Origin: Octopus vulgaris | Taxonomy: Eukaryota | Length of the DNA stretch: 64,000 bases | NCBI GenBank assembly: GCA_951406725.2 | Contig: OX597837.1 | Span: forward strand, 44,640,001-44,704,000 | Reading direction: 5' to 3' | Part shown: one piece after another, positions 8,431 through 60,954 of the stretch | Layout of the letters: every line of letters starts with the position of its first letter | Numbering within the stretch: position 1 is the first letter of the stretch | Notes under the pieces: model-generated | The model's input: only the letters and a program-made list of their open reading frames with translations | What the model was told of the DNA's origin: nothing | Database searches by the model: none | Made by a program: the position numbers and the translations under genes

Positions 8431-9430
8431 ATAATTTCAACAATTGAGGGTAAAATTAATTAATTATTAATCAATTTCACCAAGTATTCAGTATGTAAAG
8501 GGACCATTATAGGCGAATTCAAAATATTACATTATATATAAGGGCTTAGTAAAATAAATTACTTTGCCACATACTGAACTCATTAGAAATAGCAGCTAAA
8601 GAAATTTCTTCAGCTATTTCTAATACTTAAAGAAGATCTCTCTCAGATAGTGTTTGCCTAAACCAACTCACAAAAGTATGGGGGAAAAAACATTAAAAAA
8701 TCAAGTGCAAAGGTTATTTGAGAACGTACGTTTCTAGATTAGTCAATTCGACATTTCTTTCTTCAGCTCAGAATTCCTTGAATCGGATTTGGGAACACTG
8801 AAAGTCGGGAGCATACCCTTTCGGCTTCTAATCACCTCTAGAATTCTGCTCGAACTAAAAGTGCTATCAAATTCGAATATGCAAGCGAAGAATTTCTGCT
8901 CTCCCTTTCCACCAGCGTGGGTTAAAATTGACAAACACCATGTATTAACGGTGAAAACCGCAGCATTTAGCAGAGAGAGATGAATTATAATTTCAACAAT
9001 TGAGGGTAAAATTAATTAATTATTAATCAATTTCACCAAGTATTCAGTATGTAAAGGGACCATTATAGGCGAATTCAAAATATTACATTATATATAAGGG
9101 CTTAGTAAAATAAATTACTTTGCCACATACTGAACTCATTAGAAATAGCAGCTAAAGAAATTTCTTCAGCTATTTCTAATACTTAAAGAAGATCTCTCTC
9201 AGATAGTGTTTGCCTAAACCAACTCACAAAAGTATACGTTCTCAAATAACCTTTGCACTTGATTTTTTAATGTTTTTTCCCCCATACTTTTGTGAGTTGG
9301 TTTAGGCAAACACTATCTGAGAGAGATCTTCTTTAAGTATTAGAAATAGCTGAAGAAATTTCTTTAGCTGCTATTTCTAATGAGTTCAGTATGTGGCAAA
9401 GTAATTTATTTTACTAAGCCTTATATATAA
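8431..9430. mobile_element. direct-plus-inverted repeat block, Penelope-like pseudo-LTR remnant
   Basis: About 8431-8679 is repeated directly at about 8987-9234, then the reverse complement of about 8533-8729 follows at 9235-9430. Flanked by (TA)n and contains an HHR-like motif. Confidence 0.65.
8719..8770 (-). ncRNA. hammerhead-like motif inside tandem/inverted repeat
   Basis: Minus strand: tgag-CTGAAGA-aaga...tcta-GAAAC-GTAC-GTT-ctca; first helix II pair mismatched, GUU triplet. Confidence 0.6.
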
Positions 9431-9491
9431 TATATATATATATATATATATATATATAACCAAGAAAAAAGCAGCAAGAATGGATTAGTAG

Positions 9492-9580
9492 TTTAGTACA
9501 ATTGTTTCATACTAAGAGCAATTTTATTTGAAGCTGCAAATATTGCAGCAAATACAAATGTCCAGTATTCATCAGCTAAA
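9492..9580 (-). ncRNA. type I hammerhead ribozyme motif (canonical core)
   Basis: Minus strand: tttag-CTGATGA-atact...agtat-GAAAC-AATT-GTA-ctaaa; helices I and II each pair over 5 bp. Confidence 0.85.
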
Positions 9581-10030
9581 TCACATATATGTTTTCCAGA
9601 CATCCTAGAGGGTTTGATTATCCTCATGAAGTATTAGGAGTGAGTTCTATGAAATTTTAAGTCAAATTATTAGCAGACTTAAAATGCTTTCTAATGATGC
9701 ACAGTTTTATAAAAGGTTTTGAAAAAAGATTTGAATTCATTGGAATTCACTTGAATCTTAATTGTTTTTTGCTGAATATATATATATATATATATATATA
9801 TATATATATATATATATATATATATATATATATATATATATATATATATATATATATACTCAAGCACACAGATATATATATATACACACTTTATGTACTG
9901 ACTTTTGTTCTGTTAAACATTACGAACGTTTAGCTTCCACAATACACATATAAATTGAATACACTTAGATTAATTACCACCATAATACCACGCCGTCGCT
10001 GTACCGATTCTTACTTCTTTCTCTGTTTAG

Positions 10031-57399: not shown

Positions 57400-57859
57400 C
57401 TTAAATACAACTCAGGATGTGTGTGTGTGTGTGTGTATGAATAAGTGTGTGTGAGTACGTGTATGAATGTATGTGCGCAAATCATTTATCATGCTGGCAT
57501 GATTATTGTACATAATTTTTTTTTATACTTACACATTTCTCCTCCAACTACACACACAAATATATAACTAGGTTTGACGATAACAGCAGAATATTTGCTG
57601 ATGGAGTGACTCAATACTGAAAGTAGAGTAAAGTTTATTGTAAAGATAAAGTTGAATGGGACCTCAGGTTTCCCCTAACTGCTTGTGCAACCAGTCGCTA
57701 GGTAAAACTTGTCCCGGCCAACTTGGATTTCACAATATGTAAATATGTTTGCCTAATCTTTCATTCCCCACCATTCATTGTGTTTAATTCTTACCAATAT
57801 ATACACACAGCTCCGGTGTCAGCCTGTAGTTCTATTCCATAGTATATGATAGTACTAAG

Positions 57860-58260
57860 TAAGTGTAGTACTTACTTATTTACTCATTTACTTACGCCCT
57901 TCGCTACCTATGAAGCATAGGCCATCGATGTCTTTTCTCCACCATTCTCGACTTTGGTCTGTCTTTTTTGGCTTCTGTCCATTTGGATCCCTATTTCCTT
58001 GCAGCTTCTTTCGGATTTTGCTGCACCGCATCATGTTTCCCTGAGAGAAGACCTTTCTCTCCCAGATCTTATCATTTTTGAATTGTCACTGATGCTACTC
58101 CAACTTTATCTTTGAGAAGAGGAATTACCTATTAGCCTGGCCTGTATCCTTTGACCTGTGCAGCATGCGACGCCTTGCCAAGACCTGGCGTTCCACTGGC
58201 ATAACTCCCAGATCATTGAGATTCACGAGTGACCACACCGCAAGGACTGGACCTTGAGGT
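57860..58260 (-). mobile_element. RTE-derived non-autonomous element remnant
   Basis: (TAAG)n-like tail near 57870; GC-richer head resembling RTE 5' UTRs by recall. Confidence 0.4.
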
Positions 58261-60954
58261 GTAGATGCAGTATTCAGTAATTTTACGTTCTGCGTTCAAT
58301 TAGTACCGAGGTCGTCTATGGCTTTCATTCCTTCAGAGTCTACGAAATCAAGTCCATTAACTCAACACTAATCAATCCCACAGTAATGAAAATATATGTG
58401 ACCATTTTGCCAATGTTAGAACCCAGTGTCCCTTTCATGTGGTGAAGCATAATTACCAAATACAGCACCAGTTCTTAGTTACTGAGATCAATAACTCCCT
58501 TGTAAATATATTTTCCATTTTTCTTTAAACAATTTATAAGGGGCCGTTGATGTGTAAAAGTCACACACCCACCATGGTTCCCGTAGCAGGTCTACGAATG
58601 TAAATATCGTTTTATTTGTTTTAGTCGTTAGACTATGGCCATGCTGTGGCACCGCCTTGAAGAATTTTTTAGTCGAATGAATCAACCCCAGTACCATTTT
58701 TTAAAGCCTACCACTTATTCTATCAACCTCTTTTAACGAATCTCTGAGTTTCGGAAACGTAAACACACCAACACCGGTTGTCAAACGGTGCTAGGAGACA
58801 ATCACAGACACACACGCATATATATATATATATATATATATGTGTGTGTGTGAGTGTTGTGTGTGTGTGTGTGTGTGAGTGTTGTGTGTGTGTGTGTGTG
58901 TGTGTGTGTGTGTGTGTGTGTGCGTGCGTGTGTGTGTGTGTTGTGTGTGTGTGTACGACGGGCTTGTTTCAGTTTCCGTCTTCCAAATTAACTCGCAAGG
59001 GTTTGGTCGGCCTGCTGCTATAATAGAAGACTCTTGCCTAAGGTGCTACATACTGGAACTGAACACACAGCCACGCCTGAGCCTATATATATATGAGTGT
59101 GTGTGTGTGTGTGCATGAATATATATATATATATATGTATATAACATATGTTTGATAACGCTGATACAAGCGTGTTATAGATATTCATGGAATAGTCTTC
59201 AGATAAATGAGAACTTAAATCACAATCCTAACGGATCCATAGAAATTTGTGTTATTCCATATACCTACAACATAAGTGTCTTTTCCATGTAACGGAAGTG
59301 ATTACGGCGTAAGCCATGGTTCACCGAAACAGCTGGCAAGATAAGACTATTACATAATTTCTATTATTACTATTTTTTTGCATTTTCTTTTCTGTATTCA
59401 GTATTCTGAATGCCATGTAAATATACTCAAAACATACTCATTAAGCCTACTTGTGCTTATCTGCCCCTCTGTTATGTATGTGTGTGTGTATTTGAAAAAT
59501 GAGATTTTGTCGAGGTAGATCGTGTGAGTCGGTTTCATTTCCCACTTGCAGCAAATTTTTTTGCTGTTATTTATCCCCCGGCTGACATTCAAAGGCATTT
59601 CACCTTTGACAATCCTGTCTTTTTTCCCCCTCATAAGCAGGAATATATGTAAGTCATCTTGATTGTCCAACGTACTCAGTCTTAACAAAACAGCAGTATT
59701 TTGTGATTTGAGGGTGGTTTAGCTGGTATTCTAGAAGCTTGAGAGAGCACATAAGAAGTTCCCTCCGTCGTTAGGTCATAGATATTTCACTACTCCCTCC
59801 CATCTTAAGTAAAAAAAAAAACAACAAACAAACAAAAACATGGTACATTGGACAAGGTATTCCGTGTGTATTCAATGCCTGATAAAAAAAACCCCGAGAT
59901 GGTCACGGTTGAGCATAGATCAACTTGACAAAGTTGACCTGATTCTCATGAATACTAACAGGACACGTTGGATATACGGGACTGTGTTTAGACTGTCCAA
60001 TCACAAGTCTGCTGACCTGGTGCTAAACGAGTAACAATACTAACAAGTATCAATGAGCCAATGAAGGTGCCCTTACAAGGTCATTCGATTTGCTAGAAGC
60101 AGTAGCCAAATCTACCTCAAAATCAGGAAGAACACACTAAATAATGTAATCTTTACTTAACCCTAAAAAGAAGTGAAAGTCACGGTTGGCATGCCGTTAA
60201 CCATAGGTCTGCTTGATTAGGCTTAACTCAGAGCAAAACGTCAACAATTCATAAATTGTAAATATGGATGTATGTGTATGTGTGTGTGTGAGAGAGAGAG
60301 AGAGAGAGAGAGAGAGAGAGAGAGAGAGAATAAGAATGAAGTCTAGTTTTATCCTTGAATCATTTGTAAATATTTCATACAATAAAAACAATAAATATTT
60401 CATATTTTGTTGTCATTTTTTGTTACAATTTTTTGGTTTGTTTGTTTGTTACATACTTTTTCATTCATGTATAAATATGAAAGTCTCGTGCCAGTTAAAT
60501 AGTTGAGGCGTTTGCTTCTCAACCAGATGGTCTATAATGGAATCCCACTGCACAACATTTTGTAAGAGGGCCTTCCTCCTACCAGAAGTTTGTAGTTGAA
60601 GAATACTTTGTGAAATTTGATAGACAGAAACTGTGTGAAGATCCATCATGCACACGCACACACACACACACACACACAGAGGCACGCACACACACACCAC
60701 TACCACTGCCATCATTTAACGTTTCTGTTTCCCAAACAACCAACACATATTGTCCATGGAAGTTGGGAAATGAACAAACTCGCTTGTATGATGATGATGA
60801 TGATGCTCATTCACGACCATCATGTGATATCTAGACAAAGGTACACACAAACATACAACACATATACACACACACACACACACACACATATGCATGCACA
60901 CATATGCACATGCACACACACACACACACACACACACACAGAGGCATACATATC

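Follow-up and report, generated by a model that had tools for sequence, protein, structure and literature searches.

We have analysed a stretch of 64,000 nucleotides of the Octopus vulgaris genome (contig OX597837.1, positions 44,640,001 to 44,704,000; hereafter the window) in which dispersed hammerhead ribozyme (HHR) motifs had been predicted. The window holds five intact motifs, and these are real type I hammerhead motifs. Very probably, all five lie in 5'-truncated repeat copies with the anatomy of Penelope-like elements (PLEs); one of their families continues into remnants of a reverse transcriptase (RT) and a GIY-YIG endonuclease, three are short units in which no open reading frame (ORF) was seen and that were likely moved by Penelope enzymes, and it is predicted that two hammerheads can pair through an 8-nt palindrome and then cut.

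The strict pattern was CTGANGA-x-GAAAC-loop-GTH, and loops of 3-8 nt were allowed in the window search. Seven matches were obtained, of which the following five have a 4-nt loop (N4) and at least 3/4 pairs in both helix I and helix II.

8719..8770 (core 8723-8766), minus strand: type I hammerhead, loop GTAC, helix II domain of 25 nt whose base is A.A, cut predicted on the 3' side of 8723
9492..9580 (core 9497-9575), minus strand: type I hammerhead, loop AATT, helix II domain of 60 nt
20117..20184 (core 20121-20180), plus strand: type I hammerhead, loop CATG, helix II domain of 41 nt
Core 29169-29245, minus strand: type I hammerhead, loop GATC, helix II domain of 58 nt
Core 40520-40581, plus strand: type I hammerhead, loop CTAT, helix II domain of 43 nt

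The type I core order (CUGANGA, GAAA, NUH) is thus present at five of the seven sites named in the original prediction, and all five have both helices. When the window was shuffled 300 times in 1-kb blocks with dinucleotides preserved, N4 motifs numbered 0.15 on average (maximum 2) and those with both helices 0.01; the observed numbers were reached in 0/300 shuffles, and a palindromic loop together with helices never arose. The predicted cores therefore stand, and shuffled sequence does not reproduce their density. On the one hand, AT-rich repeat DNA does yield chance matches to such a pattern, as seen in a long interspersed nuclear element (LINE) coding stretch that fits it often and in non-N4 matches without helices at 61292-61439 of the window. 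On the other hand, the shuffles, the covariation and the 17-fold genome-wide excess over a reversed pattern described below refute chance for the five intact motifs, and we give this explanation practically no weight. The matches at 61292-61439, two on the minus strand, were rejected. An Rfam scan of the window gave no hammerhead family among the matches listed (150 of 308), which were dominated by microsatellite matches to miRNA models.

Two further sites had been taken for decayed hammerheads starting at 55693 and about 59290, and both have the predicted loops.

55697..55778, plus strand: decayed hammerhead, CTGAGGA kept, loop ACGT, cut triplet GCA versus GTA in intact-looking relatives
59326..59337, plus strand: 3' half only (GAAAC-AGCT-GGC), within an old repeat copy at ~59227-59468

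The first is indeed a decayed copy, and its family is old, with 31 other matches at 70-85% identity. At the second, an old family conserves the 3' half, which reads GAAAC-AGCT-GTC in most relatives and has GGC in the window. Because no CTGANGA core is visible on the 5' side in the window or in nine aligned relatives, this site is unconfirmed as a hammerhead. In terms of density, the window is only mildly rich in motifs: for spacers of 20-80 nt, five are seen and 1.24 are expected from the genome mean (Poisson P 0.009, uncorrected for the window having been picked), and the two neighbouring 10-kb stretches have none. The excess is partly due to nesting, because the insertion that carries the 8723 motif lies within the (TA)n tract that closes the copy with the 9497 motif on its 3' side.

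At the scale of the genome, the high density proposed at the outset holds. We counted exact CTGANGA-N(a,b)-GAAAC-N4-GTH matches in the 2.80-Gb assembly and used the reversed pattern as control. For spacers of 8-19, 20-50 and 51-80 nt, there were 8,823, 16,322 and 37,956 matches versus 575, 1,693 and 1,327 in the control, giving 63,101 strict motifs versus 3,595 (17-fold) or ~59,500 net, which is 21 per Mb; these are not independent events, as copies are common in ancestry, and a motif may count in two spacer bins. The count covers spacers up to 80 nt, 4-nt loops and the unvaried core. The LINE RT coding stretch, which fits the pattern by chance in many copies, is a source of false positives in such counts. 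The three spacer bins contribute ~14%, 25% and 62% of the net matches. A long helix II domain can accordingly be considered the norm, and the unusual length of helix II in the original prediction, with domains of 25-60 nt in the window, extends to the whole genome. Under other descriptors, 126,247 motifs in axolotl and more than 6,000 in a coral are given in the accessible part of PMC7229834, and ~9,000 in Xenopus in that of PMC4209133. Long helix II domains would escape short descriptors, so published animal counts may be low.

The loops that close helix III are palindromic far beyond chance. In the window, the seven loops read as predicted, namely six palindromes and one near-palindrome; the latter, CTAT, is a decayed CTAG, which is present in 10/16 motifs of its cluster, and the AGCT site is the one unconfirmed as a hammerhead. 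Among 100 listed genome matches with spacers of 20-50 nt, 85 had perfect palindromic loops by eye, comprising 12 of the 16 possible palindromes. In the 51-80 nt bin, RNNR loops, which can never be palindromic, made up 1,206/37,956 (3.2%) versus 383/1,327 (28.9%) in the control, and many of the listed RNNR matches belong to the LINE coding stretch. Because copies share ancestry, motifs were clustered before loops were counted, at an 85% threshold with the loop masked; the input was a non-random sample of 247 strict motifs in 836 kb, in which some loci overlap, and 220 of them have both helices. These 220 fell into 39 clusters, and the main loop is palindromic in 29/39, with 11 different palindromes; the mean of 20,000 permutations was 3.1 and none reached 29. 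By our own reading, ATGT, ACAT and GATT, the loops of six of the ten non-palindromic clusters, are one CpG change away from a palindrome. CGAG is the one repeated non-palindromic family loop (L015, L022, L127), with a predicted self-pairing of -6.6 kcal/mol around tandem G.A, and this family offers a natural test of the dimer model.

Related motifs point in the same direction. In 12 sister motifs including 20121 and 40520, whose loops are CATG, CTAG, CGCG and TGCA, we counted covariation for helix I and the loop pairs. Double changes were found in both variable loop pairs and in 6/6 helix I pairs, and the catalytic core is invariant. In this set 91.7% of cells pair, which was reached by 0/500 shuffles and compares with 26-38% in slid controls; related sequences can beat this shuffle, however, and pair- and type-counting measures were reached in 34 and 295 of 500 shuffles. 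The conserved palindromy of the original prediction is thus supported by the RNNR deficit, the clusters and the double changes between sister families, and the enrichment is genome-wide.

Nearest-neighbour energies suggest what the palindrome may do. Forming the helix III hairpin is predicted to cost +2.4 to +3.1 kcal/mol, and the helix III duplex is predicted at -6.4 to -11.2 kcal/mol for the four palindromes and at +0.4 for CTAT. The predicted minimum free energy of a double hammerhead is below twice that of the monomer for 8723, 9497 and 20121, not for 40520, and 29169 was left out. The motifs fit the palindromic helix III variant of PLE hammerheads, in which a 2-bp helix III would be unstable in the monomer and stable as a duplex. 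Together with the literature, these folding energies suggest dimeric cleavage. Selection for dimerisation, which the original prediction had proposed, would then act on source elements rather than on solitary copies, which lack a partner in cis and several of which are damaged.

Each of the five intact motifs sits in a 5'-truncated repeat copy, and families are named here by the core start of the window copy.

8430..9424, arms on both strands: one young insertion of the ORF-less 557-bp tandem unit (8723 family) in (TA)n; minus arm 8430-9233 with a 94-bp tail, head-to-head plus arm 9235-9424 without tail
9455..9777, minus strand: 5'-truncated 3' end of an RT and GIY-YIG PLE (9497 family); body ~9455-9731, part of the family tail in inverted orientation ~9729-9777, the whole flanked by (TA)n at either end
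20072..20349, plus strand: 5'-truncated copy of the 20121 family, a ~460-bp unit with no ORF seen, between (TA)n tracts
29035..29247, minus strand: 29169-family copy whose truncation lies 2 nt upstream of the core, with half of the helix I 5' strand lost
40480..40758, plus strand: 5'-truncated member of the 40520 family, to which 20121 is the sister family, CTAT decayed from CTAG

The families gave 1,602-2,359 search candidates, 40 of which were scored per search. Their copies show Penelope-like anatomy: the 3' end borders on (TA)n, relatives include inverted arms, and a tail of 80-120 bp is found on one arm only. In the source elements, 75-130 nt separate the hammerhead from the first of the fixed 3' ends, beyond which comes another 80-120 bp of tail. 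Two pairs of families are related. The first pair is 20121 and 40520, units of ~460-480 bp with partial tandems, which are 70% identical over 115 nt, and their tails 73% over 114 nt (E 8e-10); the 9497 and 29169 families are 77% identical over 104 nt (E 1.5e-16). Unrelated helix I and II sequences had been reported for these motifs, and this does not hold for the two sister pairs; likewise, to call the many HHR-bearing families independent is too strong.

It is very unlikely in our view that the host has domesticated these motifs as ribozymes that regulate nearby genes. The plus-strand 20121 motif does lie 1.4 kb past the last exon of a glutamate receptor-like gene on the same strand, but four AATAAA signals stand between them, every motif is in a truncated copy of a large family (1,600-2,400 search candidates), strands are mixed and the 29169 and 40520 copies are damaged.

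The 8723 family is the most informative. Its 557-bp units carry one hammerhead each, form arrays of 1 to ~6 units on many chromosomes and are 97-100% identical among the best copies. The 30 loci represent 23 insertions, and in all of them each fixed 3' end borders on (TA)n. These ends fall at unit position ~154 or 248, and the 5' ends are variable. All 14 clean two-armed insertions join one 154 end and one 248 end head to head; of the single-armed ones, seven end at ~154 and a further one at 248; L054 is broken. In the other families, with arms counted from 100 bp upwards, the same rule of one tail per insertion was followed in 3/3 insertions of the 9497 family, 4/4 of 29169, 3/3 of 20121 and 5/6 of 40520, in total 29/30 two-armed insertions in five families. 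Complex or short-armed loci were left out of this count (L062, L063, L064, L069, L079, L140, L148, L155, L163 and the window 9497 copy). Just before the long 3' end, three ORF-less families have a tail hairpin closed by GGT...ACC (8432-8530 on the minus strand, L156:1775-1855 and L076:1755-1845; z -2.7, -1.5 and -1.1), which is a candidate recognition site for a PLE protein.

The link to autonomous PLEs was found outside the window, which itself has no PLE protein remnant. In a GIY-YIG search of the genome, 148 of 150 scored candidates matched, out of 6,136, many of them in 781-aa frames. At L121, two same-strand hammerheads of the window type, separated by 4,842 bp, enclose broken RT-like and GIY-YIG-like frames, which we take, from familiar motifs and the pseudo-long terminal repeat (pLTR) layout, to be those of a PLE; Pfam did not recognise them. 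In the 9497 family, 4/15 loci (L179-L182) have a GIY-YIG remnant ~1 kb upstream that is 43-48% identical to L121, and L180 also has RT remnants that are 46-47% identical to L121. Accordingly, RT and GIY-YIG occur in the same element as the hammerhead in the 9497 family and at L121, and the proposed PLE link is upheld to this extent. No ORF was found for the 8723, 20121, 40520 and 29169 families, and a stretch of 950 bp shared upstream by two 29169 loci gave no PLE protein match. The PLE partner of these four families is therefore deduced indirectly, and we consider them likely PLE derivatives. The tails align poorly across families (42% mean identity; best local match 22/25 nt, E 0.003) and are no proof of kinship between the ORF-less families and L121.

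We also examined L111 (G000:C16:20834500-20842000), a young two-frame PLE with an intact 781-aa frame for RT, zinc finger and GIY-YIG, for which Pfam gives GIY-YIG and a weak RVT_1, and a separate upstream frame. Its terminal repeats of 456 bp are 99.3% identical and its target is (TA)n; similar young elements are L112-L114. Its hammerhead is a variant with a TTGATAA core (U3-A8) and a 6-nt palindrome. The L111 family was rejected as source of the window motifs, considering this different variant and that no window family matched its ends. The pLTR or partial tandem layout is thus seen in the L121 repeats, the L111 repeats and the tandem units. Separately, L120 and L122 (G000:C1:8393000-8400500 and 8766000-8773500) have inverted arms of 1.85 kb that are 99% alike, with outward-facing hammerheads ~4.4 kb apart.

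Both arms of an insertion appear to derive from the same source locus. With L054 left out, the differences among copies in the remaining 22 insertions of the 8723 family amount to 0.39% inside an arm, 0.46% when the two arms of an insertion are compared and 1.12% from one insertion to another. At seven diagnostic sites, 20 of the 22 are uniform throughout; L057 differs at one site, and L185 (G000:C9:109251500-109258000), which has five units in one arm and an inverted arm, is a mosaic of family variants, for which template switching, a heterogeneous source or later conversion are candidates. There are 48 private variants at positions with two or more covering copies; 35 of them occur in a single copy, eight in all copies (four insertions) and five in some (L041, L045, L046, L185). 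It is this agreement within insertions that argues for a single source locus. The contigs of four sequencing runs cover 30/30 bins of the 8723 unit, and none of the three presumed RNA runs shows an intron-like joint; these contigs are not used as evidence.

The ORF-less units could instead be free non-LTR retrozymes, propagated as circular monomers that an RT copies in repeated rounds, the arrays being rolling-circle products. This is a serious possibility, which we nevertheless rate below an even chance. Arrays of 1-6 units with one hammerhead each agree with it, as do the diagnostic sites, uniform across units and arms, and the eight private variants present in every covering copy; such units are circular in coral, mussel and axolotl according to the accessible text of PMC7229834. 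A homogeneous linear source array, however, explains common variants equally well, the five private variants in only some copies and the mosaic array on C9 point to non-identical multimer templates, and the ends obey the PLE tail rule, not the cut site. The evidence for a monomer-circle template is therefore mixed, and such circles are possible; they are also compatible with movement by PLE enzymes, as its RNA-release step.

For movement by PLE enzymes, we propose the following course. A tandem source would be transcribed into a multimer, in which two hammerheads could combine into a double hammerhead by means of a helix III of 8 bp, which the monomer cannot hold. Cleavage would free unit-length or multimeric RNA, possibly circular. 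From the anatomy of the insertions, the GIY-YIG endonuclease would cut (TA)n and RT would prime at the two fixed ends, leaving 5'-truncated and often head-to-head arms from the same source locus, one with a tail and one without. Solitary copies, as in the window, would be mostly silent because they lack a partner, and would then decay.

Several points weigh against the explanation by dimer-cutting PLE hammerheads. The predicted monomer folds are no more stable than shuffles (z +1.2 to -1.7), and the base of helix II in the five families is A.A, A-U, A.A, U.U and G.U, with G10.1-C11.1 in none. According to the accessible text of two sources, dimers of minimal HHRs have low activity (PMC4209133) and only 1/9 Xenopus dimers were cleaved (10.64898/2026.07.22.740005). 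To these are added the lack of ORFs in four families, the silence of Pfam on the L121 frames, the shared ancestry of the counted motifs, and L074, the lone exception to the tail rule, with two short ends. Considering the helix II base, weak or mismatched in all five families, and the poor in vitro activity of related motifs in these sources, the palindrome might be kept for a non-catalytic role, for example to pair one RNA with another or to bind a protein, with most motifs not cutting even as dimers; PMC4209133, in its accessible part, leaves other functions open. Against this, the full catalytic core is invariant when helix I and loop change freely by double substitutions, and 11 different palindromes speak against one protein site. 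We consider such a role improbable.

A further reading gives the palindromic helix III a part after cleavage, as a template-pairing signal comparable to the dimer initiation site of retroviruses. It would hold two transcripts of the same locus together at a single (TA)n cut, where one would prime at the tail end and its partner at the short end, which would give head-to-head insertions with one tail; the palindrome would limit pairing across families, and the PLE protein would dock on the long helix II. The single tail in 29/30 insertions and the agreement of arms at diagnostic sites fit this reading. However, one RNA primed twice fits equally, unrelated families share palindromes, and Naiad elements have the same anatomy without hammerheads, as the accessible text of 10.1101/2021.04.23.441226 has it. 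We therefore regard this reading as a long shot, slightly less probable still than a non-catalytic palindrome.

In addition to the hammerhead families, the window contains exons of an ionotropic glutamate receptor (iGluR)-like gene at 13693-18746 on the plus strand, with Pfam Lig_chan at 15684-16055 (E 3e-15) and Lig_chan-Glu_bd just under the cut-off at 13693-14301. A Tc1/mariner-type transposase remnant lies at 10676-11245 on the minus strand (HTH_Tnp_Tc3_2, E 4e-14). A 302-aa frame at 56491-57399 on the plus strand, possibly together with 40984-41286 and 44084-44275, has a predicted membrane segment and a serine-rich tail; Pfam gave no match for this possible second gene at 40-57 kb, the 302-aa frame included, and a short stretch at 44.1 kb is presumably cadherin-like, judging from a familiar motif. 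An abundant repeat resembling a short interspersed nuclear element (SINE), with an internal tandem unit of 174-185 bp, occurs at 27276-27589, 33705-34256, 45437-45830 and 62561-62894, and we assume that it is akin to octopus SINEs.

Compared with known systems, the window motifs are close to the PLE hammerheads of Cervera and De la Pena (2014, PMC4209133). The accessible text of that paper describes type I hammerheads with short helix I and palindromic helix III in many heterogeneous families, a dimer model, mostly single dispersed motifs, few of them inside full PLEs, and opposite-strand pairs 100-700 bp apart, all of which is alike here. Helix II is different, with 7-8 bp there and a domain of 51-80 nt in ~62% of net matches here, as are the G10.1-C11.1 pair, typical there and absent from the five window families, and the ~21 motifs per Mb. 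Because they retain a 2-bp helix III with a 4-nt loop, the window motifs are not minimal HHRs in the sense of that paper, as had been suggested, and they have no G-C at the helix II base. A short palindromic stem III is likewise shared with the dimer-cleaving PLE hammerheads of Lunse et al., as summarised in the accessible part of the review PMC6765202.

With respect to anatomy, endonuclease-containing (EN+) PLEs, in the accessible text of Craig et al. (10.1101/2021.04.23.441226), share with the five families the pLTR, the inverted 5'-truncated arm, the one-sided tail and the (TA)n bias, and the octopus genome has autonomous elements of this kind with RT and C-terminal GIY-YIG, some with intact 781-aa frames. 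The tails differ, being 30-40 bp there and ~80-120 bp here, and the one-tail rule is counted here (29/30). Non-LTR retrozymes were defined by Cervera and de la Pena (2020, PMC7229834) and derived from PLEs in vertebrates by Li, Clavereau and Pollet (2026, 10.64898/2026.07.22.740005). As in metazoan retrozymes, the units of the 8723 family are ORF-less, stand in tandem and contain a single type I hammerhead, and there are partial tandems in 20121 and 40520; retrozymes are also proposed to be non-autonomous PLE derivatives, and their consensus range of 51-972 bp spans the 460-557 bp seen here. Cephalopods are outside the animal set of both studies: in the accessible text, the word cephalopod occurs in neither, and octopus does not occur in the preprint. 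Unlike retrozymes, each insertion here has PLE end signatures, so that movement by PLE enzymes is favoured over purely local array growth. We found no report of octopus hammerheads in a literature search in which subscription journals were thinly covered, and supplements of PMC4209133 and the 2026 preprint may hold mollusc or long-helix examples.

The kind of element will not surprise specialists of ribozymes or transposons, and its value is as material and test bed. In their accessible parts, 10.1101/2021.04.23.441226 calls open how PLEs make tandem and inverted insertions and what role their hammerheads have, and the 2026 preprint leaves gaps in invertebrates and in the mode of movement. In the octopus genome there are a very young ORF-less family whose copies are 97-100% identical, autonomous PLEs with intact frames, and ~60,000 motifs among which loops have been swapped naturally, and the one-tail rule can be counted. 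In summary, palindromic dimer hammerheads in PLEs are already known and the window motifs are further members; our study adds the long helix II as the norm and a countable rule of insertion.

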